From contig JBMFXK010000002.1 of assembly GCA_049964315.1 (NCBI GenBank), forward strand, positions 1 to 26,052: 26,052 nt of DNA, in the 5' to 3' direction. Below, in pieces: positions 1-18,120 of this stretch (within the stretch, counting starts at the first letter, position 1; the number at the start of each line of letters is the position of its first letter). Origin of the DNA: Clostridia bacterium. Lineage in GTDB: Bacteria; Bacillota; Sulfobacillia; Sulfobacillales; JAIMBI01. The notes beneath the pieces are model-generated. The model saw only the letters and a list, made by a program, of their open reading frames with translations, was not told the DNA's origin and made no database searches. A program made the position numbers and the translations under genes.

Positions 1-2
1 GA

Positions 3-1016: not shown

Positions 1017-1615
1017 GGGCGGCGAATGTCCGGACTCCCACCGCTGTAACCCGAACGACCCGCGAGACAGATGTCCAGGTGATCTTGGGGTCCGACGCCC
1101 CCGGCCTCGATGTGGCGGTTCCGATCTTCCAACACTTCTTGAACGCGTGCCTCACGACGTGGGGCTGCCCTGCGCGGGTTGAGGCCCGGGGCGATGTCGA
1201 CGTCGACCCGCACCATCTGGTGGAAGACGTCGGGCTCGTGCTGGGGCGGGCCCTGGCCGAACACTGGCCAGGTTACCGCGACATTGCCCGCTACGGGTGG
1301 GCCGTGGTGGCGATGGACGACGCTCGCGCCGAAGTGGCGCTGGACCTGTCAGGACGTGCCGGATGCTGGCTCGAGAAGGTGCCAGACGGCGCGGTCAATG
1401 GACTCGAGTCTGAGGTCTTAGGCGAGTTCTGGCAAGGTGTTGCCCGCGGCGGGGAGCTGACGCTCCACTTGAACATTCCGGCCGGGAACAGCCGCCACCA
1501 TCGCTGGGAGGCCGCCTTCAAGGCACTGGGACTGGCCCTGCGGCAAGCGACAGAACCCCGAGAGGGGACGCTCAGCACGAAGGGGGTGATTCGCCATGCG
1601 GGTCGCGATCATTGA
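1013..1615 (+). CDS. hisB: Imidazoleglycerol-phosphate dehydratase (monofunctional)
   Basis: R-T-T-R-E-T-D start, two metal-binding motifs DPHHLVEDVG and NSRHHRWEAAFKA, C-terminal STKGV. Lies between hisD and hisH. Confidence 0.96.
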   Translation: MRAANVRTPTAVTRTTRETDVQVILGSDAPGLDVAVPIFQHFLNACLTTWGCPARVEARGDVDVDPHHLVEDVGLVLGRALAEHWPGYRDIARYGWAVVAMDDARAEVALDLSGRAGCWLEKVPDGAVNGLESEVLGEFWQGVARGGELTLHLNIPAGNSRHHRWEAAFKALGLALRQATEPREGTLSTKGVIRHAGRDH

Positions 1616-2204
1616 TCTGGGATTCGGGAATTTGAACTCCGTGCGCTGGGCCCTGGAGCGATTGGGAGCGGAGGCGGTGATCACGGGGGACGCTGATACA
1701 GTTCTGGCCGCTGACGCCATCGTGGTGCCGGGGGTGGGCCATTTCGCGGCGGCCTCGGCGCGGCTGGCCGACACCGGTCTCGACACGGTCATCTGGCGCC
1801 GCGCTGGCGCCGTGCCGCTCCTCGGGATCTGCCTCGGCATGCAGATCCTGTTTGACCGCTCGGAAGAGGGTGGACGGGGCCTCGGCCTCCTCCCGGGTGC
1901 GGTGACCCGGCTGCGCGACCCGGCAGGGCCGCTCCCCCACGTGGGCTGGAACGCGGTTCAGGTGTCGGCCGCCGCAGGCATCATGGCGCGAGCGGGGGCG
2001 GGCGACGCGTACTTCTGCCACACCTATGCCGTCCGACCTGAGGATGCCCTGCTGGCCGCCGCCTTCACCGACTACGGCGATCGATTTGTCAGTGCGGTGC
2101 AGAAGGGCGTGGTGTGCGGCGTGCAGTTTCACCCGGAGCGGAGCGCCGCGTACGGAGCCGCAGTTCTGAAAGCATTTTTGGGACTGGCGCAATGTTCACG
2201 GTGA
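1596..2204 (+). CDS. hisH: Imidazole glycerol phosphate synthase, glutamine amidotransferase subunit
   Basis: IIDLGFGNLNSV, VPGVGHF, catalytic GICLGMQ and QFHPE motifs. Confidence 0.97.
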   Translation: MRVAIIDLGFGNLNSVRWALERLGAEAVITGDADTVLAADAIVVPGVGHFAAASARLADTGLDTVIWRRAGAVPLLGICLGMQILFDRSEEGGRGLGLLPGAVTRLRDPAGPLPHVGWNAVQVSAAAGIMARAGAGDAYFCHTYAVRPEDALLAAAFTDYGDRFVSAVQKGVVCGVQFHPERSAAYGAAVLKAFLGLAQCSR

Positions 2205-2896
2205 CGCCCGCCATAGATGTGGCGGGCGGTCGGGTGGTCCGGCTGTATCAGGGCTCGCCGGCGGCCATGACAGTCTACAACCAGGATCCGGTGGCCCAGG
2301 CCGCTTACTTTGTGGACGCGGGAGCACCCGCCCTTCACGTAGTGGATCTGGACGGCGCCTTTGGCCATCCGGGCTTGTCCGCGGAGAGCGTCCGCGACAT
2401 CGTGGCCCTGGGCGCTCCGGTCGAACTCGGGGGCGGCATCCGCACACTGGCGGCCGTGGCGCGATGGCTTGACTTCGGCGTGTCGCGGGTGCTGGTGGGG
2501 TCGGCGGTGCAAGACAGGACGCTGCTGGCCGCCATGGCGCGAGAGGCCGGTCCCGGCCGCCTCGCGGTGTCACTCGACATCCGGTCCGAACGGCTGGCAG
2601 TCCAAGGCTGGCGCGTTACGTCCGGCCTTGACGCCTCCCAAGTGGCGGAATCCCTTCGGGACGTCGGCCTCAATCAGTTGGTGGTGACGGCCGTGGAGCG
2701 AGACGGAACCGAACTGGGACCGGACTTGGCCCTGGTCCAAGCCTGGGTCTCGGCCGGTTTCCGCGTCACAGGAGCCGGCGGCGTCCGCCACGTCCACGAT
2801 CTTCGCGCGTTGAAGGCCGTACACGCAGAAGGCGCCGTCGTCGGGCGCGCCTTCTACGAGGGCCGCCTGACTATGAGGGAGGCACTGGTATGTTGA
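2192..2896 (+). CDS. hisA: ProFAR isomerase (HisA)
   Basis: PAIDVAGGRVVRL, LHVVDLDGA, GGGIR and RDGT motifs. Start placed at the ATG at 2192, overlapping the hisH 3' end, rather than the ORF-track start at 2114. Confidence 0.95.
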   Translation: MFTVTPAIDVAGGRVVRLYQGSPAAMTVYNQDPVAQAAYFVDAGAPALHVVDLDGAFGHPGLSAESVRDIVALGAPVELGGGIRTLAAVARWLDFGVSRVLVGSAVQDRTLLAAMAREAGPGRLAVSLDIRSERLAVQGWRVTSGLDASQVAESLRDVGLNQLVVTAVERDGTELGPDLALVQAWVSAGFRVTGAGGVRHVHDLRALKAVHAEGAVVGRAFYEGRLTMREALVC

Positions 2897-3648
2897 GGCC
2901 CCGGCTCCTTGCGTGCCTGGACGTGGCCGCAGACCGTGTGGTGAAGGGCCGGCGCTTTGAGGCGCTGGAGCAATTCGGGCGGCCCGAGGAATTGGCCCGT
3001 TGCTATCAGGACCAGGGCGCCGATGAAGTGGTGCTGCTCGACATCACCGCCACGCGAGAGCGGCGCGGGCCCGACCTGACGACGGTCAACCGGGTGGCCC
3101 GGACATTGTCCATCCCGTTGACGGTTGGCGGCGGACTCACGACTGCGGAGCAGGTCGGGCGCGTTCTCGCCGCCGGTGCGGATAAGACCTCCATTAACAC
3201 ATCCGCACTGAGCCGCCCGGAGCTGCTCCGGGAGGTGGCTGACCGTTACGGGACCCAGGCGGTCGTGGTGGCCGTGGATATACGCCAGCAGGGCCCGGGG
3301 TGGCGTGTCTACGGGCATGGCGGCCAAACCGCCACCGCCTGGACACTTGATGCCTGGCTGCGCGAGGCCGAGACTCTGGGAGCAGGCGAGGTGCTCCTCA
3401 CCTCCATCGACCGCGACGGCACCGGCCAGGGCTACGACATCGCCGCACTGGACGCCGCATCCCACGCGACATCCCGACCGCTCATCGCCTCGGGAGGCGG
3501 AGCCCGGCCGGCTGACCTGGAACTGGCCCTTCGGGTTCCCGGGGTGACGGCCGTGCTGGTGGCTGGAGTCCTGCACCGCGGCGAGACCACCGTCATGGCC
3601 TTGAAACGGGCTCTGGGGGCCAGGGGGCTCATCCTCCGTGGTGCATGA
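2890..3648 (+). CDS. hisF: Imidazole glycerol phosphate synthase, cyclase subunit
   Basis: CLDVAADRVVKG, GADEVVLLDITA, IPLTVGGG, LLTSIDRDGT and IASGG motifs. Confidence 0.97.
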   Translation: MLRPRLLACLDVAADRVVKGRRFEALEQFGRPEELARCYQDQGADEVVLLDITATRERRGPDLTTVNRVARTLSIPLTVGGGLTTAEQVGRVLAAGADKTSINTSALSRPELLREVADRYGTQAVVVAVDIRQQGPGWRVYGHGGQTATAWTLDAWLREAETLGAGEVLLTSIDRDGTGQGYDIAALDAASHATSRPLIASGGGARPADLELALRVPGVTAVLVAGVLHRGETTVMALKRALGARGLILRGA

Positions 3649-4243
3649 AGCCATGCCCGACCTCCTGCCGGTCGTGGTGCAGGATGTGGATACCGGGGCT
3701 GTGCTGATGGTGGCCTGGACCAACGCCGAAGCTCGCCGCCGGTCCGAGGAGACCGGGCGGGCTCACTTCTGGAGCCGGTCGCGGGGCGCGCTCTGGGACA
3801 AGGGCGCCACCTCGGGCCAGGTACTCCGGCTGGTGACCGTCCGTGAAGACTGCGACCAGGATGCCCTCCTGTACCAGGTCAGGGCGCCGCATGGCGCCTG
3901 TCACACCGGCCGTGCCAGCTGCTTCGGGGACGTTGAAACCGCCGTGTCCATGCTGGGCCGCCTGTTCCACATCCAGGAGGAGCGCCGAAACCACCCGTCT
4001 GCGGATCCATCGTACACGCGGTGTCTCGCTGCAGGCGGCATTGACCGGGTCCTGCGCAAGGTGGGTGAAGAGGCGGCCGAATTCCTGGTGGCCTGCAAGA
4101 ATCAGGATCCCGAAGAGGTGCGCGCCGAGGCTGCCGACGTTCTCTACCACCTCTGGCTCGCGCTGCACCTCTCGCACGTGAGCCTGGCCGAAGTCAGCCA
4201 GGAACTGGCCCGGCGCCATGAGCAAACGGGAGCAAGGCCGTGA
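3638..4243 (+). CDS. hisIE: Bifunctional phosphoribosyl-AMP cyclohydrolase / phosphoribosyl-ATP pyrophosphatase
   Basis: HisI motifs FWSRSR, WDKGATSG, DCDQDALL and ACHTGRASCF. HisE motifs KVGEEAAE and EAADVLYH. Confidence 0.96.
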   Translation: MVHEAMPDLLPVVVQDVDTGAVLMVAWTNAEARRRSEETGRAHFWSRSRGALWDKGATSGQVLRLVTVREDCDQDALLYQVRAPHGACHTGRASCFGDVETAVSMLGRLFHIQEERRNHPSADPSYTRCLAAGGIDRVLRKVGEEAAEFLVACKNQDPEEVRAEAADVLYHLWLALHLSHVSLAEVSQELARRHEQTGARP

Positions 4244-4505
4244 AATCCGCTCGCCGGTATGTGACGGTGCTCGGCGTGGTCACCCTTGCGCTCGACGGCC
4301 TCCCCGATGCATGTCGGATCGCGCCGTGCAAGGGACACCCACAGCCCGCTACGAACGACGGCCGGATCACGGGCCAGGGCGAGGGAGCACCCGTGCCGGC
4401 CAGGCGGCTCCATCGTCTGCGACAGGATTCTGCGAAGGTCAACGCGTGGGGTGCGGCCGCCCGAAAGTGACGCGCTTGGTCTACGCTCTGGGGCGCGACC
4501 ACTAA
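4244..4505 (+). pseudogene. Possible degraded IS110-family transposase C-terminal fragment
   Basis: Three successive frames give MHVGSRR..SPLRTTA / RRLHRLRQDSAKVNAWGAAARK / VTRLVYALGRDH. This resembles the IS110 C-terminus (ISKRG.P.LR ... Y.RL...GK...A..A.ARKL...IYA.LRD). Recognised by eye only. Confidence 0.35.
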
Positions 4506-4513
4506 CCCCCAGA

Positions 4514-4535
4514 CCGGAGCTGCGGGATGCTCCGG
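4514..4535. terminator. Hairpin between the convergent his operon and ABC permease
   Basis: Perfect 7-bp stem CCGGAGC-N8-GCTCCGG. No clear U-tract on either strand. Confidence 0.25.
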
Positions 4536-4593
4536 AGCGCCATCCAAGACCAGGCTGGGCATATCCACCGAGTCACGTCTGCGCGGGGCCGCC

Positions 4594-5364
4594 TCAGTAG
4601 TGTCCCAGGATGCCGCGGCGGCGGGCCACCCGATCCGCCGCCCGGAACGCCACGCCGCCCACCACGAACGTGACCGACAGATTCATGAGGGCCTCGACCC
4701 ATTGCATGGTTTCCGGCAGCCTCCCGCCCAGCACATCGTGCAGCACCGTCACCTGCGCCGCGAACGGCACCACCATCGCCGCTAGGTGCCAGCCCCATCC
4801 GGCCAGTGCGGCCACCGGCGACAGGATGATAAACAGGAGCAGGAACTGTACGACCTGCAGGACCTGGCCCACCCTTTTCAGCACGAGGGCGGCCGAGGCC
4901 ACGACGAGCCCGAGGCCCCAGGCCGTTCCGAGGATCATGGCCACCGGTACGAATGCGGCAGGGGTCCAGATGAAGTGGACGTGGGTCAGCAGGATGAGGC
5001 CGACGATGACCACTACGATGGGCACGAGGCTCCCGATCAGGGTGGTGAGGGCGCGCACCAGGAAGAGCCAGAATGACGCCCACGGAACCAGCATCACCTG
5101 TTCCAGGGTTCCGTTCTGAGCCTCGTTCTGCACCGACCAGCCCATGTCCCCGGTCGCGGCCATCATGATCATCCAGACCGCATACCCGAGCACGACGGTC
5201 GTGAGCCGGCCGGTTCCGATCGGCGAGTTGGTGATATAGCGCGCGCCGTAGAAGAGGCCCGCGAATATGAGGAACATGGTGAACATGGCCGACAGGCTTT
5301 CGACCGGATACCGCACCATCTCCGCAATGGTGCGCCGCCACTCCGCCACCACCAGTGCCCTCAC
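4594..5364 (-). CDS. ABC-2 type transporter permease (256 aa)
   Basis: About six hydrophobic segments and an EAQNGTLEQVML motif typical of ABC-2 permeases. GTG start at 5364 overlaps the ATPase stop (GTGA) and follows GGAGGT. Confidence 0.88.
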   Translation of the reverse strand: MRALVVAEWRRTIAEMVRYPVESLSAMFTMFLIFAGLFYGARYITNSPIGTGRLTTVVLGYAVWMIMMAATGDMGWSVQNEAQNGTLEQVMLVPWASFWLFLVRALTTLIGSLVPIVVVIVGLILLTHVHFIWTPAAFVPVAMILGTAWGLGLVVASAALVLKRVGQVLQVVQFLLLFIILSPVAALAGWGWHLAAMVVPFAAQVTVLHDVLGGRLPETMQWVEALMNLSVTFVVGGVAFRAADRVARRRGILGHY

Positions 5365-6326
5365 GGCGCCTGCACCTCCATCACTTCCCGGAATACCTCC
5401 GTGAGGTCTGCCTGATGGCGCTCCACCTTCACCAGTGGATGCGGCGCCAGCCGCTCCAGGACACGGTAGACCGTGGTGTCCGTCGGCGAGTCCAGCTGGA
5501 AGTGCAGCGTGTCCGGCCCGGTGACAGACACCGGCAGCCCGTCCATCCGCACATAGATGTCGGGAGGCCACGGCTCCGCGGCATACACCGTCATCATGGG
5601 CCGGGAGTACTGAGCCAGGACATCGACCGTGGGGCCGTCCAGAACGAGTCGCCCCGCCCGGATGATGGCCACGCGGTTACTGAGCTCCTGCGCGATGTCC
5701 AGCTGATGGGTGGTGAGCAGGATGGCGGTCCCCTCCCGGGCCAGTTCCCGGATCATGTTCTTGATGCCCACACTGGACTCAAAGTCGAGCCCCAGTGTGG
5801 GTTCGTCCAGGAGGAGGACCTGAGGGCGATGGATAAGGGCCTGACAGAGAGCCACCTTCTGCTGCATCCCGCGCGAGAGCGTCTGCACCGTACTGCGAGC
5901 CCGACTCGAAAGGCCGACCCGTTCCAGCAGCGCTTCTGCACGCCTGCGCGCCTCTCGTGGCGGGACCCGGCGGATGGAGGCCCAATACTGGAGGTTCTCC
6001 ATGACGGTGAGGCGCCAGTAAAGGTTCCGGCTGCCTTCGAGGACGGCACCCAGCCGGGCCGTAACCCAGTCGTGGGCCACATCAAGCGCACGACCCTCCA
6101 CCACCACCCGACCCTGGTCGGGGGCGACGAGGCCCGCCACCATCTTGATGGTGGTGGTCTTGCCGGCCCCGTTGGGGCCTAGAAAGGCCAGCACCTCTCC
6201 TGCGTCCACGCTGAAGGTAATGCCCTGAACCGCCGGAATGCGTCCGGTCCGGGTCTGAAACTGCTTGGCGAGATCCGAGACCTCGAGTGTGGAAGGCGTC
6301 GCGCGCTCCCCATTGCCAGTTTCCAT
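5361..6326 (-). CDS. ABC transporter ATP-binding protein (exporter type)
   Basis: Walker A GPNGAGKT, signature LSRGMQQK, Walker B LLLDEPT, H-loop TTH. Confidence 0.95.
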   Translation of the reverse strand: METGNGERATPSTLEVSDLAKQFQTRTGRIPAVQGITFSVDAGEVLAFLGPNGAGKTTTIKMVAGLVAPDQGRVVVEGRALDVAHDWVTARLGAVLEGSRNLYWRLTVMENLQYWASIRRVPPREARRRAEALLERVGLSSRARSTVQTLSRGMQQKVALCQALIHRPQVLLLDEPTLGLDFESSVGIKNMIRELAREGTAILLTTHQLDIAQELSNRVAIIRAGRLVLDGPTVDVLAQYSRPMMTVYAAEPWPPDIYVRMDGLPVSVTGPDTLHFQLDSPTDTTVYRVLERLAPHPLVKVERHQADLTEVFREVMEVQAP

Positions 6327-6584: not shown

Positions 6585-7751
6585 TCACATAGCCGGAATC
6601 GGAACAGATGCAAGCGTACGTTGCAGCTGTTCCATAGAAACGGGCTTTACAAGGTGGTAGGCAAATTCCGACACTCCGGGGCACCCCCCGTCGTCCCCCA
6701 GGTTCCGGTCGCTCAACGCGACCAAGGCTACATCCTGATAGTCCGAATGCTGGCGAATCCTCTTCGCGACTTGATAGCCGTCCAGAGGAGCCATGGTAAT
6801 GGCAAGAAGCGCAACCGTCGGCCGGAAAGCATGCATCAGATCGAGAATGCGCCGCCCATCAGTGGCAGTCGCCACTTCCATCCCCATCTGCGTAAGCGCT
6901 TCGGCAAGAAGGTCGACAAGGTCAGCATTGTCGTCCACGACCAGCACGCGGTGGGGAGGGGCAGATTGCAGAGAGTGGGGCGGGGTGGAGTTATCAACCG
7001 CACCGGTGCTTGCGAGCGGCAGGGTTACCACGAACGTGCTCCCGCGCCCCGGTCCGTCACTAATCACCTCGACGACTCCCCCGTGAAGCTTCACGATGGA
7101 GGCCACCAACGTCAGTCCGACGCCAATTCCTTCAGTGTCTCTATGCTCCGGTCGGCTCCAGAACCCATCAAAAACGTAGGGCAATTCCTCGGCGGGGATG
7201 CCAACCCCCGTGTCGGCCACCGTAACCCGCGCCACCCCCTCGGCGGATTCTGCGTAAATCTCGATACGGCCGCCCGCAGGGGTGAACTTGCAGGCATTAT
7301 CCACCAGATTCGCGACTACCTGCGTCAGTCTAAGGGGATCTGCCTCGAGAACTATGGGGGCGTGCGGGAGGGAGATCGTGACTGTCAGACCCGCGCGCTC
7401 CGCAAGGGGCATGGCAACCGTCATGGCCTGCTGAATCACGTCCTGCAGAACGGTCGGCGCCTTGTGGAGATGGAGTTTCCCCTGGTCAAGCCGGGCCACA
7501 TCCAATACGCCATGCACCAGCCCCGAAAGGTGATCCAGTTGCCGCTCCAGTAAGCTCCACATCGGCTGCGCCAGGCCGTCATCACTAAGCTGTTGGCGTA
7601 GCTGCTGCACGCTAAGCTGGATGGCGGCGAGCGGGTTCCGCAATTCATGGGCCAACGTGGTCAGAAGGCGGGTGCTGCGCCGGGTGGTTGCCAGAACGTC
7701 CTCCTCACAGGGCCAGTTAACGGCTCCATCCGACTTGGCCCGTGGCGCCAT
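6585..7751 (-). CDS. Hybrid histidine kinase (HisKA-HATPase-receiver-like), no evident sensor domain
   Basis: H-box LAHELRNPL, N-box NLVDNACKFT, G1 DTGVGI, G2 GIGVGL. Receiver RVLVVDD...LVKP. Start placed at ATG 7751 after AGGCGG; the frame stays open to 7982, so the start is uncertain. Confidence 0.88.
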   Translation of the reverse strand: MAPRAKSDGAVNWPCEEDVLATTRRSTRLLTTLAHELRNPLAAIQLSVQQLRQQLSDDGLAQPMWSLLERQLDHLSGLVHGVLDVARLDQGKLHLHKAPTVLQDVIQQAMTVAMPLAERAGLTVTISLPHAPIVLEADPLRLTQVVANLVDNACKFTPAGGRIEIYAESAEGVARVTVADTGVGIPAEELPYVFDGFWSRPEHRDTEGIGVGLTLVASIVKLHGGVVEVISDGPGRGSTFVVTLPLASTGAVDNSTPPHSLQSAPPHRVLVVDDNADLVDLLAEALTQMGMEVATATDGRRILDLMHAFRPTVALLAITMAPLDGYQVAKRIRQHSDYQDVALVALSDRNLGDDGGCPGVSEFAYHLVKPVSMEQLQRTLASVPIPAM

Positions 7752-8174
7752 CGTGCCGCCTAGGTCCGAATGCCCGCAGAATGGCGGACTCTTGCTGGCA
7801 GTATCCGTTTCACGATATCTGTGCTCGAGCTGGAATAGGGTCTTCGGCGGAGACCCATCGGGGAGACGCGTCTTGCGAACGCACTTCTGCTCCGAGTCCC
7901 TCGTCCTGCGCTCAGCCATGTACTCGTGGTCCTTCCCGTCACCCGAGTTCAAAATCAGTTCCCGGCTACATCGAGGACACACCGGAATAGTATCCGGTCA
8001 CGTTCCTTGGCTCGATGAGCGGTTCACGCCCCCTCCTCCAACCAGGGGCCCGAATGGATAACCGCCAGGAGCAGGCCACGTTCCTCCTGCACGCCGATAA
8101 CGCTCGCACCCGGACGAAACAATCAACAACACTTTCAAAGTGATCCGTCGGTATCCGTCCGAAGCCGCTCTAAC

Positions 8175-8202
8175 TTAAAGGGGGGTGACAGTCGTCACCC
8201 CC
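8175..8202 (-). terminator. Likely intrinsic terminator downstream of the small peptide gene
   Basis: Perfect 9-bp stem (minus strand GGGGGTGAC-GACT-GTCACCCCC) followed by CTTTAA, about 85 nt after the peptide stop. Short U-tract. Confidence 0.5.
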
Positions 8203-8285
8203 GGACATGCCGTCTCCCACCGTGTCTACGCCCACTCTCGGGTCCCTTCACGGGCCCTACCCTGGCGACCGCACGTGAGCGTCAT

Positions 8286-8447
8286 CTAGCAAAGAGGCGG
8301 GAACCCTGGATCAGTGCAATATGGACTAGGCTGGCCAATCGCAATCACACTCGAGTGCATCGTCAACGGAACTGGCGAAATCCGAGCCGTCCCCATCAAC
8401 GCTGCAAGAACCGTAACCACAGATAGGATGGACAAGAACCGTTTCAT
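8286..8447 (-). CDS. Small secreted peptide precursor (53 aa), candidate signalling propeptide; not in the ORF track
   Basis: Manual translation: MKRFLSILSVVTVLAALMGTARISPVPLTMHSSVIAIGQPSPYCTDPGFPPLC*. Basic N-terminus plus hydrophobic core (signal-peptide-like). SD-like AAAGTAGTGA 5 nt upstream. Divergent from the XRE-TPR gene and followed by a hairpin. Confidence 0.75.
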   Translation of the reverse strand: MKRFLSILSVVTVLAALMGTARISPVPLTMHSSVIAIGQPSPYCTDPGFPPLC

Positions 8448-8528
8448 CAGGCTCACTACTTTCTAATGATGCAAGCGGAAACCGCCGATGAGATGCTTAC
8501 ACGATTCGCTTAGGGTGGTATCCATTCC

Positions 8529-8570
8529 TGGCATTTGCAATTCGGGTTTGTTAACCTTGCGTTCGCAAGG
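8529..8570 (+). promoter_or_regulatory. Putative sigma-A promoter of the XRE-TPR gene with an overlapping palindromic operator
   Basis: TGGCAT (8529-8534), 17-nt spacer, TAACCT (8552-8557) preceded by an extended -10 TG (8549-8550). Perfect inverted repeat CCTTGCG-TT-CGCAAGG (8555-8570) directly before the RBS AAGGAGAG. Confidence 0.35.
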
Positions 8571-8585
8571 AAAGGAGAGCGTGCG

Positions 8586-9812
8586 GTGACAGTCCCCGGA
8601 GCACAACGGCGATTCTCTTCCGAAAAGGCAACGCCCGACCACCTTGGCAACACGGTGAGCCGGTGGCGGCGGGAGAAAGGCTACACGCAACACTATCTAG
8701 CCCACGCCATAGGAATTTCGGCGGTTGCGCTGTCACGAATCGAAACCGGGGTGAACCGTCCCACAGCGGAGTTGTGGGTGCGCTTGATTCACGCCCTCGA
8801 CATGAGCCCCTCGCCTGCGGCGTGGGAAGTATTCGTCCTCGGAGAAACCCGCTGTGGGCGCATCATCGCGCTCGCCGATGAATTACTGGACCAGGGTCTC
8901 ATCGTGGACGCCCGCTGGGTTGTCTCAGAAGCAGAGCAACTTAATCAAACATCGTTTCACGGTCGATACAATGGGGAACTGGATCGACTCTGGGGTTGCG
9001 TCGCCTTTCTGGAGGGCAACTACCTTGAGGCGTCTCGCCGTTTCGAACAGATGACGCGGAACGCCACCAAGGGACTTCGGCGTCGCCAGGCCATTGCCGC
9101 CTACGACCACAGCATAGCCCTGTTTCACCTATCCAGGTGGGCGTCCGGATTGGCCCAACTGTCAACGGCTCAACGACTCTTTGCGCAAGACGGGGACAGT
9201 CGCGGAGAAGGACTCGCGCATTGGGCACGGGGTACGGCGCTCTTGAGGATGGGTGAATATGAGTCCGCGCAGACCAACTATGAACAGGCAGCTAAATCAC
9301 TGATGGGCACTCCCGAGGCCGCGTTTCCGAAATTCGGCGCACTGATATGTGAGTCAGCCCTGGGCTTAGCGCATGGCACCACCATTCAGAAGTTGATGAC
9401 GTTGGTGGAGGAGGCCCCCGCCAGCATGCGGCCGCGCATCTACCATTTCATCGGAACCGTAACCCGCTTGAACGGCGATCCGCGACATGCGTTGGAGTGG
9501 CTCGACCGGTCCCTTTTGACGGAGCCTATTGGCAGCGAGCAGTGGTGCGACACGCAGTGCGAGCGATTGCTCTGTCTGTGCCTAACCGGCGCGACGGCTG
9601 AAGCCGCCGACCTGTGGCCGGACGTGGCCGAGCACTGGGGCTCACTGAACGAGCATAATACACTGGCACTGGCAATCATGGGAATCATGCTGAAGCAGAG
9701 TCCTCCACCCGACACCGGCCGCCCATGGATTCGGCGACACCATGAGCGGCGTGTCGACGCGGTCATAGACTGGGCATGGCGCTACGGGGTTTCCGGGCCG
9801 CAGAACCCTTGA
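8586..9812 (+). CDS. XRE-family HTH plus tetratricopeptide-repeat transcriptional regulator (RRNPP-like peptide receptor)
   Basis: N-terminal HTH (WRREKGYTQHYLAHAIGISAVALSRIETG) followed by TPR-like helix pairs (e.g. AHWARGTALLRMGEYESAQTNYEQA, YHFIGTVTRLNGDPRHALEWLDRSL). GTG start at 8586, 6 nt after AAGGAGAG. Confidence 0.85.
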   Translation: MTVPGAQRRFSSEKATPDHLGNTVSRWRREKGYTQHYLAHAIGISAVALSRIETGVNRPTAELWVRLIHALDMSPSPAAWEVFVLGETRCGRIIALADELLDQGLIVDARWVVSEAEQLNQTSFHGRYNGELDRLWGCVAFLEGNYLEASRRFEQMTRNATKGLRRRQAIAAYDHSIALFHLSRWASGLAQLSTAQRLFAQDGDSRGEGLAHWARGTALLRMGEYESAQTNYEQAAKSLMGTPEAAFPKFGALICESALGLAHGTTIQKLMTLVEEAPASMRPRIYHFIGTVTRLNGDPRHALEWLDRSLLTEPIGSEQWCDTQCERLLCLCLTGATAEAADLWPDVAEHWGSLNEHNTLALAIMGIMLKQSPPPDTGRPWIRRHHERRVDAVIDWAWRYGVSGPQNP

Positions 9813-10595
9813 GTGATTGACCTTCCATTAGGCTGCGGATCTTCGAGGCTTCCGTTACAAGTGAGTTTCCGCACGTCAGACCGGCGACCGCAAGGGTTCG
9901 GCAAAGGCAGGGGTCCGAGCCACCGCAGACTGTGACAGACCCCGGCCAGCGGCACCAGGACGACCCTACCCGAATGTGGAAAACCGAGGCAAATCCACGT
10001 ATATTCAGCCTTCATCAGGGAGGATGGTCGCAAGGGGCTGGGCTCGCGAGATGGCGGGTACCAGCAGGTCTGGAAATCCGACCACCTGCTCGTCGCGTAG
10101 TCTCCGCGACGACTTCGATCGAAAGCGTTCATCGATTATAGCGCCATGGGATTCCGCCAGTAGAAGTTCGGGCTGATACCACCGATTGTCACTCTTCCGT
10201 ATATGCCGCCAAACCGCCACGGTCAGGGCCAGAGGCAGGTATTGACGTCGGGCCCAGGTAATCCAATTGACCTGCGGTCCCTTTGAGCCGCTTGTCGGAG
10301 CATTGCCATGCTCCAACGTACCCATAAGGGTACGCCCTTCCGGTGGGTGACGGAACAGAGGACAGCAAAGTCTTCCACCAAGATGTGGTGCTCGACGGGG
10401 CCCCCGAAATCGCTCAGGCCACGCCTGCTGCCCGTTCGGCGCGGACGGACGTTGGGGATCGGCCGCGAATCGCGGAAGAACCATAAGACAAGGCTCTTCG
10501 AACAAGGCCCATGGGAAGGGGGCCCGTGAAACTTCCTACGGCAGCCCCTGCGATGCGCATCAGGGTAACAGGGGAAGTGCGATCGGACCTCGGAG

Positions 10596-12683
10596 CTAGT
10601 TGTGTCCTCGAGGTGAGAGGGACCCCAGCCCGAACGCCTCCTGGAGAGCTTCCGCAACAGTAGCAACCGTACGGATCTCCAAGAGATCTTGGAAGTTCCG
10701 GCGGATGTCCTCAAGCTCCCCGCCATTGGCTTCGGGCACGAGGGCGCGCCTGCGTCCGTGTCGTAGAGCCGCGTAGAGCTTGGCCGACAGACCCCCCACG
10801 GGCTCGACCTCACCGTGAAGCGTCACCTCACCCGTAACCGCCAGCGCCGGCCTCACTGGCCTTCCCGTAAGGGCCGACACCATGGCCAGGAGGAACGCCA
10901 GGCCCGCTGAGGGTCCGTCCCGACGGCGCTCGATCGACACCAGATGGACCGCAAGGGTGGTTCCCTGCAATGCGTCTGGAGACAGGCGGAAGTCTGTCAG
11001 GTGCTCGCGGATGTAATGAAACGCGGCTTGGGCAGACTGCTCCATGGCCTTGCCGCGAAACCCCGTCATCTGGAGGCCGCCTGGTCCTGTCACCACCGAG
11101 GCCTCAACGACCTGAATGTCACCGTCGATCGGTTCGCCGTTTTGATCGAGGCGTGTCATGAGCGCCGTGATCTCACCGGGCCGCGGGTCGACGTTGAGCC
11201 GGTGATCGTGGGTGGTCCACACGACGCCGCGAGTAAAATCAGCTGGCCTGTGCGGCTCGATCCCCTCGAATCCGATGACGCGATCTCCGAATTCGCCGGA
11301 GGCAATCTGGCTTAGCTGGTTGTGCACCCTCTGCCGGAGCTCGCCCGCGAATCCGAGGAGGGCCTGAAGCTCGGGGCCTGCGGGCGTCTTATGCGGGTAG
11401 AGAAGCTTCATCAATCCACTCAGGACCTTGTCCACAGCGCGGCGGTCCCGCTGGGTGACCGCCGGACGGTAAGAATAGCGAGCCACGATGCCGGCAATCT
11501 CAGCGTCCATCGCGTGAACGCGAAGCTCGGCCATTATGGAGCCGATCGCGTCCATAGAAAGCCCCCACTCCGGCTCGAGGGCATCCGGGGTCAGCTTCGG
11601 GATCTCCCATCCTGGAATGAACATGTGGAGGCGGTCGATGACGGCCGTGTCCAGCAGCATGGGCGGCAGGTCCCGGAAAAAGTGGGTATAGTACGGGGCC
11701 GGCTGGCCGCCCTCGGTCGTGAGGTTTCCGAGCAGCACCAAAGATGCATCCGCAGAATACTCCCGGTTGCCGCGGGAGTACCGACCGCTCTCCATATAGT
11801 CTTTCAGGATGGATGTGGTTCCGTAGACGTCTTGGATGGCGAGGCCCGCCACCTCGTCGAACACCACACAGTCCGTGAAGCCCAAAATGCCCATCTCGCC
11901 CGTGTGCAGATTTACAAACAGGTTGGCGGGTGTAGTCATGCCGCCGCTTACCACGAACGTCCGGTCCGACACGTTCCGATAGAGATAGGTCTTGCCCGTA
12001 TTTTTCGGGCCGAGTTCGATGAGGTTGACCTGCGGCTCCACCAGCGGGATAAGCCGGGCCAGCATGAGCCATTTGATGCGCCGTGCGTCCGGAAGGTCCG
12101 CCCAAGCGCCCGGATTGTAGCCCAGCGAACATAACAGGAGGTCGACCCACTCGTCGACGGTCAGGGCGCTGCGGAGGTTCAAGAAATCTTGGAACGGCAC
12201 CCCGGTAGCCACCGGTTGAAACTCGGCGACAAATATCGGAGTCTCGCCCTTAGTGCGCGCCGTACGGTAGCGCAGCGTCACCCGGCCCCAGAGGCCGCCG
12301 CCCACCAGGCCAGGATATTCCTCCACGATCTCGGGGGGCACGTCCACCCGCCCCGTCCTCCTGAGGTTCGACAGGTGACCGTAGGGACGGCCCTGGCGGA
12401 CGTCCACCTGGATCGCCAGATGATCGAGGACTCTGAGGAAGCCATTTCGGGTCAGGGCGTAGAGGAACTGCTCGTTGTTGTGAGGACCGGGCAGATAGCG
12501 TTCAACGGCCTCCACGGCCGGACCGAGGCCCATCTTCCCTACCAGGTTTTCGGCCGCGAAGCGCGGGAGACGCGCCAACACCCCGCTGCGGGTGTGGCCC
12601 TTCTCCACCACCCAGCGGGGGTCGATCGCCTCGATCCTGGCCCGCAGTTCGCGATGCGCGGCCGACGCCGCGTCCGCCATCAT
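10596..12683 (-). CDS. brxL: BrxL-like protein: BrxL N-terminal region, AAA+ ATPase and C-terminal Lon protease domain (695 aa)
   Basis: RLIPLVE..NLIELGPKNTGKTYLY, SGGMTTPANLF, DCVVFDEV and AVIDRLH match the BrxL/Lon_2 ATPase pattern. DGPSAG...TGEVTLHGEVEPVGGLSAK is a Lon_C domain. RBS AGGAG. Confidence 0.88.
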   Translation of the reverse strand: MMADAASAAHRELRARIEAIDPRWVVEKGHTRSGVLARLPRFAAENLVGKMGLGPAVEAVERYLPGPHNNEQFLYALTRNGFLRVLDHLAIQVDVRQGRPYGHLSNLRRTGRVDVPPEIVEEYPGLVGGGLWGRVTLRYRTARTKGETPIFVAEFQPVATGVPFQDFLNLRSALTVDEWVDLLLCSLGYNPGAWADLPDARRIKWLMLARLIPLVEPQVNLIELGPKNTGKTYLYRNVSDRTFVVSGGMTTPANLFVNLHTGEMGILGFTDCVVFDEVAGLAIQDVYGTTSILKDYMESGRYSRGNREYSADASLVLLGNLTTEGGQPAPYYTHFFRDLPPMLLDTAVIDRLHMFIPGWEIPKLTPDALEPEWGLSMDAIGSIMAELRVHAMDAEIAGIVARYSYRPAVTQRDRRAVDKVLSGLMKLLYPHKTPAGPELQALLGFAGELRQRVHNQLSQIASGEFGDRVIGFEGIEPHRPADFTRGVVWTTHDHRLNVDPRPGEITALMTRLDQNGEPIDGDIQVVEASVVTGPGGLQMTGFRGKAMEQSAQAAFHYIREHLTDFRLSPDALQGTTLAVHLVSIERRRDGPSAGLAFLLAMVSALTGRPVRPALAVTGEVTLHGEVEPVGGLSAKLYAALRHGRRRALVPEANGGELEDIRRNFQDLLEIRTVATVAEALQEAFGLGSLSPRGHN

Positions 12684-12697
12684 CTCATCTCCTACGC

Positions 12698-13930
12698 CTA
12701 AAACAGACGTTTTCGCTGGACGGGTCCCTCATCCTCATTTTCCACCACGGCCTGCTCCGTCAGATCCACTTCCTCCACGTGCCAGACGACGATCTCGGGC
12801 TCGCGACCATACTGAAGCCAGTGGTCGAGCCACTGCACCGACGCCCGGATCCGCGTCCTCAGGCGGGCGTCGGCCCCGCGCACGTGCCGGTCGAGAAACC
12901 GCTGCAGATCTTCCTCTGCCGGCGGTTCCCATTCGTAAGCGCGGGCGTGCACGGCGCGAATCGTAGCCAGGAGCGAGTGAATCTCCTCGGACGACAAGGC
13001 CGGCAGCCGCTCGGCGCGCATCAGTTCGGCGATCCCGCGCCGCGCGAGGGTCGCTTCGCGTTCGCGCCCTCGCTGCGAAAGCCATCCGGGACCCTTCTCC
13101 GCATCCTCCTTAGCCTCCAGCACGTCTGAGTAGAAGTTCGAGGCCACAGCCGCTATGACAACGGTGCGGGGAAGCTCCTGGGCGACGGCAAGATCGAATA
13201 GGTTACTGTACGCGAGCGCCCGTTGTCCGATAGAAGTCTTGCCGATGAGTTCGAGCTCGTCGATTAAGATGAGCCAACCCGCAAAGCCCGCCTGCCGGAT
13301 CAACTCCGCCATCAACCGGTAGTACCAGATCGGCTCGCGTGTAAAGGCGTACGGGGGGAGACGGTGATCCAGACCGAGATCGCGGAGGATCGCCTTCAAT
13401 CGCCCGACCATCAAGAACTCTCCCGATAGATCTGCTAACAGCTCGTGGCGATAGGTCATGTCCACGTGAAAGTAAGCCTCAAGCGATGCCCGCAGTCGGT
13501 CCGGGATTCCGGCATGTTCCAGGGAAGCCAGCACCTCAGAGGCCCGGGGCTGCAGCCGGTCGAGGAGCGGCGCCAGCCCCAAACGCTGGGATCCCGGGGT
13601 CCGGGTCCCTGTGGCCACCGCCTTGAACAGGGCACCCAGGTTGTTGAGGGGAGCCTCCCGGCTGATGCTGATGGCGCTGACGACATGACCAGCAGAAAGG
13701 GCGGTTCCGGTCACCGCCTGCAGGAAGTGGGTCTTGCCTTCCCCATAGTTGGCGCGCACCAGAAGCGGCCCACCCCGTCCGGTCTGCAGCATCGCTCCCA
13801 CCCGGCCCAGAAGGGCGCTCCGGCCGATGGGAAGCTTCTGGGCCAGGGCGGCAAACGGCACCCCCGCCCGGAGGCTTTCCAGAATACGCTCGGCTTCGTG
13901 CTGCTCAAGATCGTTACGGAGCATCGTCAT
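12698..13930 (-). CDS. DUF2791 / BrxD-like P-loop ATPase, second copy (410 aa)
   Basis: N-terminal EAERILESLRAGVP (typical DUF2791 start), Walker A ANYGEGKTH, Walker B WLILIDELE. RBS AGGAGG; overlaps the upstream gene by 17 nt. Confidence 0.8.
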   Translation of the reverse strand: MTMLRNDLEQHEAERILESLRAGVPFAALAQKLPIGRSALLGRVGAMLQTGRGGPLLVRANYGEGKTHFLQAVTGTALSAGHVVSAISISREAPLNNLGALFKAVATGTRTPGSQRLGLAPLLDRLQPRASEVLASLEHAGIPDRLRASLEAYFHVDMTYRHELLADLSGEFLMVGRLKAILRDLGLDHRLPPYAFTREPIWYYRLMAELIRQAGFAGWLILIDELELIGKTSIGQRALAYSNLFDLAVAQELPRTVVIAAVASNFYSDVLEAKEDAEKGPGWLSQRGREREATLARRGIAELMRAERLPALSSEEIHSLLATIRAVHARAYEWEPPAEEDLQRFLDRHVRGADARLRTRIRASVQWLDHWLQYGREPEIVVWHVEEVDLTEQAVVENEDEGPVQRKRLF

Positions 13931-15065
13931 GCGGCTCTACCTCCTGACTGAGGGCCAGCACGGCCCGTCGTACGGGAGACACCCGCCCCTGGGGCGGGGG
14001 CACCGCCACCACGGTGGTGCGCAGGTGTTCGGCCCACTTGGCCACCAACATCGTCAGGTTGTCAGGATCCTGAGACCAGACCCGGTCCCAGTCCACGTGA
14101 TCTTCGAAGCGATTCAACGCACGGGTCTCGATTTCATTCACAACCCGGGCGTCAAGCGCTGGGTACGACTTGAAGCCCGTTCGCTCATCCGTAAAGAGTT
14201 CCGGGCGTGCCGCCACCACGAGCCACACTCCTGGGAGCGCGTCACCGTCATCGATGAACTGGCGGAGCATCTCGTAGGTCTCTTCCCGGCGAAGACGGGT
14301 GTAGTACGGAATGCCCTCCACCTTCGGGGCCATCACTTGATCCAAGTTGTCGACAGTGACAAGGAGGCCGGGCAGGCCCGCCGCCAAAGCGGCCGCGCCC
14401 CAGCCTTGCAGGATCCCGCGCGCGTTCAGCTTGGACAGGGGTCGGGAGAGGCCCACGGCGGCCAGCCTGCCGCGAGTCACCTTCCCGCCCCGAAACCAGA
14501 CGGCCACATCGTCGCTGTCCTGGCTGGCCGCGCCGAGCGTCCTGTCCAGGCCAAATCCTATGGCCGTCTTGAGGTTCAGGTCGATGTCCAGGACGCTGAT
14601 CGTGCGGTCGACCGCCTCGCGCACATCGGCAAGCGCGCGCTCCCGCATCCGGCCCCGGTTTGAGACCAGCCAATCAAGGAGCCACGCAGGATCTCCCACC
14701 TCGTTAGGGTCATAGCCCATGGTGCGAATCACCTGGCGGCTGAGCGCGGTCAGCACGCTTTGATACGGAAGCTTCTGCAGTAACGCCCGCACGAATTCTT
14801 CAATCCCGCGCAGCCACTCTGTGCGGGCGTCCAACTCGACTACCAGCATACCGACGTCTCGCGCGCCCAGCCCCAGCTGGTGCAGCGCATGCGACTTGCC
14901 GCTGCCCTCCCGGCCCTGAATCCACTTCACCTTGCTGCCGCCGGCAGGGATGAACCGGGACGCGTAGTGCTCGATCCAAAACCGGTTCATGCCCTGCGGA
15001 TCCACGGACACGGCCCGGAAGCTCTCGTCAGCCAAGGGGGGCAGCCCCCACTCGACTCCGTTCAC
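13914..15065 (-). CDS. DUF2791 / BrxD-like P-loop ATPase, first copy (383 aa)
   Basis: FIPAGGSKVKWIQGREGSGKSH (Walker A), LLVTVDNLD (Walker B region), LRQFID and GFKSYPALDARV resemble BrxD-type motifs. GTG start overlaps the upstream stop (GTGA). Confidence 0.8.
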   Translation of the reverse strand: MNGVEWGLPPLADESFRAVSVDPQGMNRFWIEHYASRFIPAGGSKVKWIQGREGSGKSHALHQLGLGARDVGMLVVELDARTEWLRGIEEFVRALLQKLPYQSVLTALSRQVIRTMGYDPNEVGDPAWLLDWLVSNRGRMRERALADVREAVDRTISVLDIDLNLKTAIGFGLDRTLGAASQDSDDVAVWFRGGKVTRGRLAAVGLSRPLSKLNARGILQGWGAAALAAGLPGLLVTVDNLDQVMAPKVEGIPYYTRLRREETYEMLRQFIDDGDALPGVWLVVAARPELFTDERTGFKSYPALDARVVNEIETRALNRFEDHVDWDRVWSQDPDNLTMLVAKWAEHLRTTVVAVPPPQGRVSPVRRAVLALSQEVEPHDDAP

Positions 15066-15865
15066 CGGCTTTCCTCTACGAGTTCATACGATCCGAGGTT
15101 GTCCACGCCACCTGTCGGGCGCGGTACCGGCACGGCGCCTCGAGGATTTCGGGAGGGGTTCAGCACGAACCGCCGTCCTCGGTAGCGCATGTCGGACTGA
15201 TAGCGGAGCCGGTACAGATCGAAGGCAAACTGCCGGAGGGGATACGCTGCGGACCCATCTCGCAGGATAAGCACGTCATAGGCGCGCCGCAGCGGGACCC
15301 CTACCGCCATGCCGCCCTCCGCCCGGATGAGAAGGTCATAGGCTTCCGCCATCCCGCGCATGAACGCCTGCGCATTGAAGCGTGCCCCGAACAGCCGATC
15401 CCGCTCGCCTTGAATCAGCTTCGCCAGTACTTTTGGGCGGAGCACGTGGGTGGTTCGCTTGTTGACCATCGCGGCGTCGTCGACGAGGTTTATCTCGATC
15501 TCAAATGGGAACACCTCATAGCGAGGGTACTCGCCGCCAAATTCCACCTCGAGGCCGCGCAGCTCCGCCTCGAACGCTCGCGCCCACTCGGTCTCTTCGG
15601 CCTCGTTGGGAGCCAACATCGTACGCGACAGGATACCGTCCAGCTGTTCGAGCACGGACGCCAATTCGTCGACAACGCCCTTTCCGTCCCGAACCAGCCG
15701 GGACGCATCGAACGTATTTAACTCCTGGGCAAGCTTTGGAAGCCGGCCCACCCGGGCGACCCGCTTCACGAGCTGAACGGCACGGGCGACCACCTGAGCG
15801 GACGCTTCGTCAAAGGAATCCCAGCTCACGACCGCGCCGTCCTGAATCTCTTGGTAATCCTCCAT
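15062..15865 (-). CDS. Hypothetical protein (267 aa), first gene of the ATPase/BrxL operon
   Basis: Protein-like composition; ATG at 15865 is 7 nt after AAGGGGG; stop overlaps the next start. Helical N-terminus. C-terminal VPLRRAYDVL...YPLRQFAFDLYRL may be a winged helix (inference). Confidence 0.8.
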   Translation of the reverse strand: MEDYQEIQDGAVVSWDSFDEASAQVVARAVQLVKRVARVGRLPKLAQELNTFDASRLVRDGKGVVDELASVLEQLDGILSRTMLAPNEAEETEWARAFEAELRGLEVEFGGEYPRYEVFPFEIEINLVDDAAMVNKRTTHVLRPKVLAKLIQGERDRLFGARFNAQAFMRGMAEAYDLLIRAEGGMAVGVPLRRAYDVLILRDGSAAYPLRQFAFDLYRLRYQSDMRYRGRRFVLNPSRNPRGAVPVPRPTGGVDNLGSYELVEESR

Positions 15866-16278
15866 CCATGGTCCCCCTTGCACGCTTCGACAGCAATGGA
15901 CGAGGATTCTCGGGGGGATGGGCCAACTCCTTTCCGCCCCGACGTGGCCTGGGCTGGGGTATGAGCGAGGTAACCGGCGCGTCTCTCAACGTTACCCGTG
16001 CCGCTTGCCGAACGACTGCCCGACGCGGAGTTGCAGGAGTGGAAGAGCAAAACGGCGCGCCTTACGACTCTGACCCCGAGGATGTGGCAAGCGCGTGGCC
16101 TTGATTCCCGCTTGTATCAGCTTGTGCGCTGCATCGGCATCTTCGAGCCAAAGGCCCGTGTGAGGCGGGTCACGCGGCTGCGAGGCGAGATCTGACAGGC
16201 ACCTGCACGGCGACACCGAGCGCCGCCCGCGCGGGCATTCTCACCCATAGTTCCGCCACACTGCGCCCAGCGGGCGGG

Positions 16279-18120
16279 CTAGCTCTGAACGTGCGTGCCG
16301 TACCGTGCAACCAGGGTCACAGTGATCTGCGTTCGGTTGGCCGTGTTGGCTAAGACAAAAGAGACATGCCACGGAATTTGGCGCGGCAGCTTCACCCACC
16401 CCGCCGCCATCGCCATCCAGGCCAGTCCGTTGTACGGCATGTAGGACGTTTCCGTGAATCCCGGCGGGGCGTGGGGTTGAATGAGCGAGTGCGGTCCCTC
16501 CATCATCATCGCGGTGCCGGATTGGTCGGCGCCGAGTCCCCACCCCCACCATGGGGGTTCGGCGCTGCCCACCCGATTGAACTGGGCAGCGTCCGGCCCC
16601 GTATAGCGCACCGAGACACGCGCGACAAGTGGCCGTGGCACCGGGGCAACGAGCACGTCTGCCAAGTCCGGAGTTATATTTCCGTAGTTCGGCAGCGGGG
16701 GCTGGGCGAATACGCGTTGACGATACGGCGCGCCAATGGGACCGATAACCAGCCGTAGGAGGTCGGCAAGATACGGAGTGTAGACGGCCACGGGACGTAT
16801 AACCGCTGATATATGCCAGTATCCCTGGGAGCCCGTCCAGATCATCTGGGAGGGCAGCGCAGGCTCTTCAAAGGGGCCAATCCGTACCAGCCCTGATGCC
16901 GTTGCGAGGAATGCATAGTGCGACCCAGGCGCAACCGAGATGGGAGACCCCTGGGCGGTTGCGAGCACACTCCCGTCGGGTCTCAGGGCGTAGACGTCTC
17001 CGTTCTTTACCGCCACCACGACCCCACTTGCATCGAGGATTCCAAGGCCGCGGTATCCTCGGAGCACAGGCAGCTGGATCCCCATACTTGACTCGTCCCA
17101 GACCATAAGGCGTGTGCCGCTGGTCGTGTTCACCAGGTGTGCATCGGCACTGAGGGGACCGCTGGGACTCGAGCCGTACAACGAAAGCCCGCTCTGGGAT
17201 ATTTCCAGGACTTTAGACCCATAGTGCAGGACGAACCCGGCTCCGTCGTTTACAGGAATGATGGTCGCTCCACCTCGCGGCGGAGACACCGTCTCGATGA
17301 CGTGACTTTGGAACTGGACCTGAGGCAGCGCCCGACGGCCCGTTAGGGAAGATACGTAGACGGTGGTCACCCGCCCCGAGATGCAGGAGATGATGGCTTG
17401 GGAGCCCGCAGCGTTCTTGGTCAAGAACGAGCCACGTCCGCCCGGAACGATTGCCCGGATGCGGTCGGTCGAGTCGAGAACGTATGTCGTGAAGCGGTCG
17501 CTGAGCAGAAAGCCGTTGCCCGGCCCCGGGCGCACCCAGAAAGGGCCATGAGGGTTCGTCAGATGAATGGGCAGGAGCACAAAGCCTCCGGCCGAGGGTG
17601 ACGCCGCCGTGCGGTCGAGCCTTGTGGTGGCCAGCACGCGTCCGTTCGCTTCCACCAGGATCGCGTATGTTCGCCCGGAGATGCGCACCACCAGGAGGGT
17701 CTTCGTCACCGGAGAGGTCCATGCGGCGAGGATATGGGTGTTGCCCGAAAACACGTGCGTCCAGAGAGGTTTCTTCAGGTAATCGGTTCGGAACGCGACG
17801 GCGCGGTGACCCTCTGTCAGGACCAGAAGTCCCGAGGACAGGGCCAGGTGTGCGTGCCCATTGAAACCGACCGGCCACTCCCGACGCAGCACCCACGTCC
17901 CCTGCGTGGCGGTCCGCTGGCGGGAAACGTAAAGACCTACCACTAAGGCGGCGGCTGTGACCACGGCCAGGGCCGGGAAAAGTCTCCACCTCGGCGCTGT
18001 CTCTGGGCGACGTCGCCGCACTATAGGCGTCGGCTCCGGACCGGACCACTCCGGGACCCGTGTCAGCACATCACGGTGGAATCGCTCCTGTAAGCGTGCT
18101 CGCTCCTCCTCATCGCCCAT
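16279..18120 (-). CDS. Membrane-anchored putative anti-sigma factor with a large extracytoplasmic region (613 aa)
   Basis: ATG at 18120 after GGGGAGGTG overlaps the sigma factor 3' end. Short charged N-terminus, one TM helix (LFPALAVVTAAALVVGLYV), then about 550 aa of beta-rich sequence. Confidence 0.7.
   Translation of the reverse strand: MGDEEERARLQERFHRDVLTRVPEWSGPEPTPIVRRRRPETAPRWRLFPALAVVTAAALVVGLYVSRQRTATQGTWVLRREWPVGFNGHAHLALSSGLLVLTEGHRAVAFRTDYLKKPLWTHVFSGNTHILAAWTSPVTKTLLVVRISGRTYAILVEANGRVLATTRLDRTAASPSAGGFVLLPIHLTNPHGPFWVRPGPGNGFLLSDRFTTYVLDSTDRIRAIVPGGRGSFLTKNAAGSQAIISCISGRVTTVYVSSLTGRRALPQVQFQSHVIETVSPPRGGATIIPVNDGAGFVLHYGSKVLEISQSGLSLYGSSPSGPLSADAHLVNTTSGTRLMVWDESSMGIQLPVLRGYRGLGILDASGVVVAVKNGDVYALRPDGSVLATAQGSPISVAPGSHYAFLATASGLVRIGPFEEPALPSQMIWTGSQGYWHISAVIRPVAVYTPYLADLLRLVIGPIGAPYRQRVFAQPPLPNYGNITPDLADVLVAPVPRPLVARVSVRYTGPDAAQFNRVGSAEPPWWGWGLGADQSGTAMMMEGPHSLIQPHAPPGFTETSYMPYNGLAWMAMAAGWVKLPRQIPWHVSFVLANTANRTQITVTLVARYGTHVQS

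Follow-up and report, generated by a model that had tools for sequence, protein, structure and literature searches.

A candidate RRNPP-type receptor–propeptide pair and its relatives in Sulfobacillus-order Bacillota

We describe a divergent pair of genes in a 26,052-nt stretch of DNA from a Clostridia bacterium of the order Sulfobacillales (assembly GCA_049964315.1, contig JBMFXK010000002.1, positions 1 to 26,052), the whole of which was analysed and is referred to here as the window. One gene is a short minus-strand open reading frame (ORF) predicted to encode a secreted propeptide; the other, on the plus strand, encodes a regulator that joins a helix-turn-helix (HTH) domain of the XRE type to an array of tetratricopeptide repeats (TPRs). 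This arrangement recalls the RRNPP systems (Rap, Rgg, NprR, PlcR and PrgX), which in low-GC Firmicutes have roles in sporulation, competence, virulence, conjugation and phage lysogeny. A preliminary description of the same DNA proposed that the two genes form a cognate peptide and receptor of this kind and that they might place an adjacent defence-like operon under density-dependent control. Both proposals are evaluated here, largely through comparison of homologous loci.

The divergent genes and the region between them

The pair and its control region comprise the following features.

8286–8447, minus strand: propeptide gene, 53 codons and a TAG stop (ORF list)
8385–8447, minus strand: predicted Sec signal peptide, residues 1–21 (hydropathy and charge heuristic)
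8289–8330, minus strand: conserved C-terminal tail, the last 14 codons, ending in QPSPYCTDPGFPPLC; presumed source of the mature pheromone (codon comparison with the paralogue, peptides of neighbouring regulators)
8453–8464, minus strand: 12-nt leader block AGAAAGTAGTGA, common to the leader of the paralogue (alignment of the two upstream regions)
8181–8202, minus strand: terminator-like hairpin 3' of the propeptide gene (scan and fold)
8555–8570: perfect 16-bp palindrome CCTTGCG-TT-CGCAAGG (script search)
8586–9812, plus strand: receptor/regulator of 408 aa (Pfam, AlphaFold2 model, structural matches)

The 53-aa ORF has the signal-peptide-like N-terminus that had been attributed to it: after MKR come 16 hydrophobic residues and then the small residues G-T-A, beyond which, near residue 21, the signal peptide is probably cleaved, and a heuristic reading of the signal region revealed no lipobox cysteine. 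An alternative start at an upstream GTG would give 56 aa and has no counterpart in the paralogue carried by the same genome. The leader block, with the 12-nt consensus AGAAAGTAG(T/C)GA in the window and the paralogue, could be a weak Shine-Dalgarno (SD) site or part of the promoter or leader. As for the downstream terminator in the preliminary description, a hairpin with a 9-bp GC-rich stem is present 84 nt past the stop codon (GGGGGUGAC-GACU-GUCACCCCC, 8202..8181, minus strand), but its U-tract is weak and shuffled sequence yields as many such matches.

The regulator starts at GTG 8586, preceded by GGAAAGGAGAG at 8569–8579; its longest ORF opens at TTG 8535, without an SD site. Pfam matches are to HTH_3 (E 1.7e-11, residues 26–75), TPR_12 (E 7.1e-8) and TPR_2 (E 3.4e-7), and the protein is laid out as an XRE-type HTH domain (residues ~20–86) followed by ~16 TPR-type helices (~90–401). 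The AlphaFold2 model (pLDDT 91.1, pTM 0.85) has five HTH helices and ~16 paired helices, all of them soluble helical repeats, and no signal peptide, transmembrane or long hydrophobic segment was noticed in reading the sequence, no dedicated prediction having been run. The regulator appears to be a cytoplasmic XRE-HTH and TPR protein. Among bacterial receptors, exhaustive structural comparison matched it to RapI (Z 22.2), NprR with NprX (4gpk, Z 20.6), the Rap of phage Phi105 with its peptide (Z 20.3) and RapH (Z 19.3), with AimR (Z 17.4) and PlcR (Z 15.2) lower. In a profile search of the PDB, PlcR is the second-best match (E 2e-9) and the only RRNPP receptor listed, the match falling mainly on the HTH domain. 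By sequence the regulator falls in none of the RRNPP subfamilies so far described: in Pfam and NCBIfam only generic HTH and TPR models match, and tblastn against plasmid and phage records gave no match at E 1e-8. Its family is discrete, with ~50 full-length relatives of a single domain run at E<1e-60 among 1.84 billion representatives and only generic multi-TPR or multi-HTH proteins below that cutoff; ~30 full-length copies were found across 210 genomes belonging to the GTDB class of the window.

The two genes stand head to head at the distance first reported, 138 bp from ATG 8447 to GTG 8586. The palindrome within this gap abuts the SD site of the regulator, lies ~108 nt from the ATG of the propeptide gene and is a candidate operator for a dimeric HTH protein. 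When any 2-nt spacer is allowed, the 16-bp pattern turns up only once more in the 3.28-Mb genome (on contig C400), and the looser core TTGCG-NN-CGCAA has three sites in the whole genome. Ahead of the closest regulator homologue (L047) the same core lies at a distance of 137–152 nt; CGTTCGC occurs just 5' of the SD site at the locus of the homologue P0027 (L096), in the same place as in the window, and the sister subclade has ACGCAA elements that resemble half-sites. Comparison with Rfam gave nothing credible in 7900–10700.

Recurrence of the pair and conservation of the peptide tail

Comparative evidence shows the 53-codon ORF to be a real gene: it has a paralogue, ranks first in a profile search of its genome and has counterparts beside the nearest regulators. 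The paralogue (G000:C45:134-295) encodes 53 aa with 42% identity to the window peptide (E 5.5e-8), and both end in C-x-DPG-x-PP-x-C. Between the two genes, the last 14 codons show 7 synonymous and 5 non-synonymous changes, and the remainder 10 synonymous and 26 non-synonymous ones; the 7 synonymous changes of the tail fall in nine conserved codons, and both Cys codons differ synonymously. The tail is under purifying selection. A hidden Markov model (HMM) built from peptides beside homologous regulators, with the window peptide and its paralogue left out, ranks the window ORF first among the 25,887 small ORFs of the genome (E 0.027). The nearest regulators with a recognisable peptide gene, both metagenomic, are P0027 and P0032, with 39.5% and 38% identity; upstream of both, on the opposite strand, is a small unannotated ORF, with the tails ...TTDPGLPPTS and ...SGDPGLPPTT respectively.

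A direct search with the peptide among 60 relatives gave no significant match, and a word-index protein search returned nothing with the peptide and two fragments only with the regulator. Peptide genes were sought beside regulator homologues instead, because the peptides diverge too fast for direct search. All retrievable homologous loci were considered, and 28 of them have a single regulator and enough upstream sequence to be assessed. A signal-peptide ORF lies upstream on the opposite strand in 25 of these 28, with 50–90 codons and in nearly all cases 50–62. The background rate in the window genome is 1.7%, such an ORF preceding 25 of 1449 long ORFs. The preliminary description had held that its reading would fail if homologous regulators lacked such an ORF, and the opposite is seen. 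At most paired loci the peptide ORF has a strong GGAGG site and the gap is 6–150 bp, widening to ~0.3–0.7 kb at four. The three exceptions without a peptide ORF are G005:C36, G009:C114 and one regulator pseudogene. Tandem regulators occur at four loci, two of which have one or two peptide genes ~1 kb downstream in convergent orientation; wherever else a peptide gene is found, it is upstream on the opposite strand.

The peptides share their signal architecture (n-, h- and c-regions) and a Pro/Gly-rich tail of the last 10–14 residues, while the 20–30 residues ahead of the tail diverge freely. Within sets of orthologues the last 12–14 residues are constant with synonymous changes and the pro-region diverges (in trios the last 12 are invariant). 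Conservation confined to the tail would be expected of a propeptide with a short active C-terminal fragment. In a maximum-likelihood tree, the type of tail tracks the clade of the regulator, as follows.

DPG[F/L/Y]PP: the window's own subclade
GPxWPPx[L/V]: sister subclade
GPLPPQPM: small-genome family
NGPG[D/G]PGP[L/F] and PGDPG[T/V][L/I]: two clades of another family
GP[DAV]P[VI]...: Sulfobacillus-type genomes

Several individual loci are recorded here for their own interest. The paralogue (tail ...NCVDPGYPPSC; L003:134-295) is 133 bp away from the start of its contig, which opens with poly-C, and immediately upstream of IS21-like genes that encode a transposase and an IstB-type ATPase. No receptor gene for it is present in the assembly, whose completeness is 84.6% and in which there is a single copy of the regulator. 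A search for related loci with a four-sequence alignment yielded four. At a locus in a genome of the same order (L049, G018:C1:648379-652575), the regulator (1525–2691, minus strand) and a 54-aa peptide gene (2757–2921, plus strand; tail ...STGPAPIMLGTRQA) are separated by a 65-bp gap with the palindrome GTACTCGAGTAC. At L054 (G006:C30) the regulator (~1345–2535, minus strand) has an in-frame TAA, which may mark a recent pseudogene or a sequencing error, and the divergent 60-aa peptide gene is intact. Across four loci with gene calls, three propeptide genes are uncalled and one is called; propeptide genes of this family are usually missed by gene callers.

Readings of the pair and the genes around it

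We regard the pair as an RRNPP-type quorum-sensing pair, with a cytoplasmic receptor and an exported peptide, at a rough probability of 0.7. The RRNPP_detector survey recognises such pairs by a TPR receptor of 250–500 aa, a propeptide of 10–100 aa, a gap of −60 to 400 bp and an export signal for Sec or PptAB (PMC10075063). The window has a TPR receptor of 408 aa, a propeptide of 53 aa and a divergent gap of 138 bp, and a signal-peptide-like architecture is predicted by the charge and hydropathy heuristic for the window peptide and for all homologous peptides; the receptor has in addition an N-terminal HTH of the transcription-factor type, and the genome encodes 15 binding proteins of the Opp/Dpp type. 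The preliminary pairing of peptide and receptor stands as a strong candidate, supported by the 25 of 28 loci, the tail that follows the clade, purifying selection and the RRNPP-like architecture and fold. Very probably the receptors and propeptides together make up a new RRNPP-type subfamily in Sulfobacillus-order Bacillota, because the same pairing recurs in ~25 related loci.

Several points weigh on the other side. The TPRs of eukaryotic LGN/Pins (Z 23.7) and domain III of MalT (Z 20.2) score as high as Rap; because such generic TPR folds score equally, the fold alone is undiagnostic of peptide sensing. The signal-peptide call for the propeptide comes from a heuristic only. Its SD-like site exists as had been described, with AGAAAG at −13 and GTGAG at −5, but is weak. 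The co-variation of tail and receptor could reflect the co-inheritance of neighbours rather than co-adaptation, independent contrasts between groove and tail residues being too few. No peptide gene can be recognised beside the closest homologue of the regulator, G005:C36 (47% identity), which may be an orphan receptor or have a decayed peptide gene; its locus (L095) keeps the palindrome core, and an ORF at 1757–2086 weakly resembles a peptide gene. Finally, no RNA sequencing runs with the locus were found; the sequencing runs that have it are DNA only, at low share, from mine drainage, soil and sediment.

The wider window bears on the alternatives and includes the following features.

1–4243: his operon
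4594–6326, minus strand: ABC-2-type transporter (ABC, ATP-binding cassette)
6585–7982, minus strand: sensor-less hybrid histidine kinase
10596–18147, minus strand: BrxL/BrxD-like cassette, convergent with the regulator

Within the cassette are a BrxL-type Lon-like ATPase (PADLOC BrxL, E 1e-117), two BrxD/SngB-like ATPases and two proteins without family matches, and no BREX core genes were seen in the window; the convergent defence-like operon of the preliminary description is in this sense real. GC content is 0.68–0.71 over the his operon and 0.58–0.65 from ~6 kb on, with its minimum of 0.579 at 8–9 kb, where the peptide and regulator lie, and the kinase, the pair and the cassette may stand on acquired DNA.

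An ORF that is short, unannotated and preceded by a weak SD site might be a reading frame that arose by chance in intergenic DNA of high GC content, but its paralogue and homologues show an excess of synonymous changes and an independent HMM places it at the top of 25,887 candidates. Comparative data of this kind have effectively refuted that reading, which we judge to have next to no chance of being right. A more serious contender is that the regulator controls the gene of the secreted peptide as a target, the peptide acting as an effector (for instance a bacteriocin-like product exported by Sec, or another extracellular peptide) and not as a ligand, with the TPR domain sensing something else. 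Conserved divergent pairing is equally expected of a regulator and its target, and several homologous pairs have as neighbours ABC-2 transporters, secreted proteins or a 70-aa secreted ORF rich in Cys, a context that resembles that of bacteriocins and immunity genes. Against it, only the last 10–14 residues are kept while the preceding 20–30 diverge, as in a pheromone and unlike a 30-aa antimicrobial; the receptor has the RRNPP architecture, and the pair is not consistently accompanied by an immunity gene or a modification enzyme. A Sec-dependent class II bacteriocin would have the whole mature peptide conserved and an adjacent immunity gene, whereas the window family has neither, nor any conserved neighbour gene. 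We consider the effector reading unlikely.

The proposal that the adjacent cassette is switched by quorum sensing through the pair fares worse. The 3' end of the regulator is convergent with the cassette, the end of brxL being 783 bp away, and the low GC content to the right of ~6 kb is compatible with a common island. Convergent orientation, on the other hand, offers no shared promoter, a genome-wide search placed no copy of the palindrome near the cassette, and a search of 12 homologous loci, up to +/-10 kb, came upon no BrxL, BrxD or other cassette gene. Density-dependent control of defence, as first suggested, thus has no support from the related loci, the kinase being likewise absent from all 12, and control of the cassette by the pair is unlikely; the switch as a whole we hold to be very improbable. 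Less credible still is the reading in which the TPR regulator has nothing to do with the peptide, which would be detected at the membrane or by a different system, for instance the hybrid kinase. The kinase does follow the peptide gene on the same strand, but no transmembrane or extracellular segment was seen in it, it is found at none of the same homologous loci, and the terminator-like hairpin lies between the two genes.

A link to ABC transport was considered and rejected. All five loci of the window clade have ABC ATPases close to the pair, yet the association is not an orthologous one: the window's ABC protein and permease have 64–71% orthologues elsewhere in relatives, without the pair or the kinase, and the link was rejected because this unit is conserved apart from the pair. 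The neighbours in the window clade are secreted proteins and ABC-2 transporters, and those in other lineages differ.

Some of these neighbourhoods are distinctive. At the loci most closely related to that of the window, L095 (G005:C36; 258–5155) and L096 (191–2391), the regulator faces an operon of a 132–156-aa secreted protein, a membrane protein and a short ABC ATPase. One family (L081, G130:C10:4000-9500, 1560–5462; also L080, L058 and L061) has tandem regulator pairs and, ~1.1 kb downstream in convergent orientation, two tandem peptide genes with the tails ...APSNPPAL and ...APGNPPAL; after these comes a gene for an EAL-domain protein, a cyclic di-GMP phosphodiesterase (Pfam E 1e-37), which hints that the peptides of the tandem loci control cyclic di-GMP signalling. 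Directly downstream of the propeptide gene at two further loci (L077:3011-3223 and L078:2991-3203) is a 70-aa secreted ORF with 9 Cys and no Pfam match, which could be a bacteriocin-like target gene.

Proposed mechanism, known systems and significance

Read as a quorum-sensing pair, the two genes would work much as NprR/NprX and PlcR/PapR do. By analogy with these systems, Sec would export the propeptide and signal peptidase would cleave it near residue 21, leaving a pro-form of ~32 aa; extracellular trimming of this form would yield a short fragment of its C-terminus that includes DPGFPP. The fragment might then be taken up through one of the 15 Opp/Dpp-type binding-protein transporters and bind in the TPR groove of the receptor, altering the binding of the receptor at the palindrome and so regulating at least the pair itself. 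The wider regulon looks lineage-specific. The two Cys residues that flank the fragment in the window genome could form a disulfide. A more specific and decidedly tentative idea, which we think doubtful, is that the signal is a disulfide-closed loop (C-TDPGFPPL-C in the window, C-VDPGYPPS-C in the paralogue), resistant to proteases and acid, with the paralogues representing distinct pherotypes. To our knowledge, the characterised RRNPP pheromones are all linear, unmodified peptides.

No characterised system matches the pair throughout. NprR–NprX of the Bacillus cereus group is alike in having an XRE HTH and a long TPR array in a receptor of ~410–420 aa (Z 20.6 to 4gpk) and a Sec-type propeptide of ~45–55 aa with its active part near the C-terminus; in contrast, NprR has no significant sequence similarity to the window receptor beyond generic HTH and TPR matches, and the SKPDIVG of NprX differs from the Pro/Gly-rich DPGFPP tail. 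The gene nprX lies downstream of its receptor gene and in the same direction, an order that the divergent peptide gene of the window does not share. PlcR–PapR, of the same group, has an HTH and TPR activator, a palindromic box and a Sec-exported propeptide whose C-terminal 5–7 residues are the signal, but PlcR is a protein of 285 aa with 5 TPRs, whereas the window receptor has 408 aa and ~8 helix pairs; papR, too, is downstream of plcR and co-directional with it. Divergent receptor and peptide genes around a shared control region are the feature held in common with Rgg/SHP of streptococci and PrgX/PrgQ of enterococci. The SHP and PrgQ peptides are ~21–25 aa, lack a Sec signal and exit via PptAB (PMC10075063), whereas those of the window family are 50–62 aa, with an n-h-c signal peptide and a ~30-aa pro-region, and the receptor has a longer repeat domain. 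Rap, of the Rap–Phr systems of Bacillus, plasmids and phages, is the best bacterial structural match to the TPR domain, and Phr is exported by Sec; Rap differs in having no HTH and in acting on response regulators.

The family has little presence in the literature consulted. Sulfobacillus, Limnochorda, Symbiobacterium and Thermaerobacter are not named in the searchable text and supplements of the RRNPP_detector survey (PMC10075063), and a prior computational listing is possible; nor are these taxa mentioned in the searchable text of a paper on RRNPPA evolution (PMC9765709). A 2024 review of acidophile quorum sensing mentions neither RRNPP nor any specific peptide system, and the genome paper of Sulfobacillus thermotolerans Kr1 does not mention quorum sensing.

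The window family would extend RRNPP systems to the high-GC, acidophilic Sulfobacillus order. Its Pro/Gly-rich tails, flanked here by Cys, pose the problem of how peptide signals remain stable at very low pH. If the disulfide-loop signal proved true, it would be a cyclised pheromone for an RRNPP-type receptor in Bacillota of the acid-mine type.

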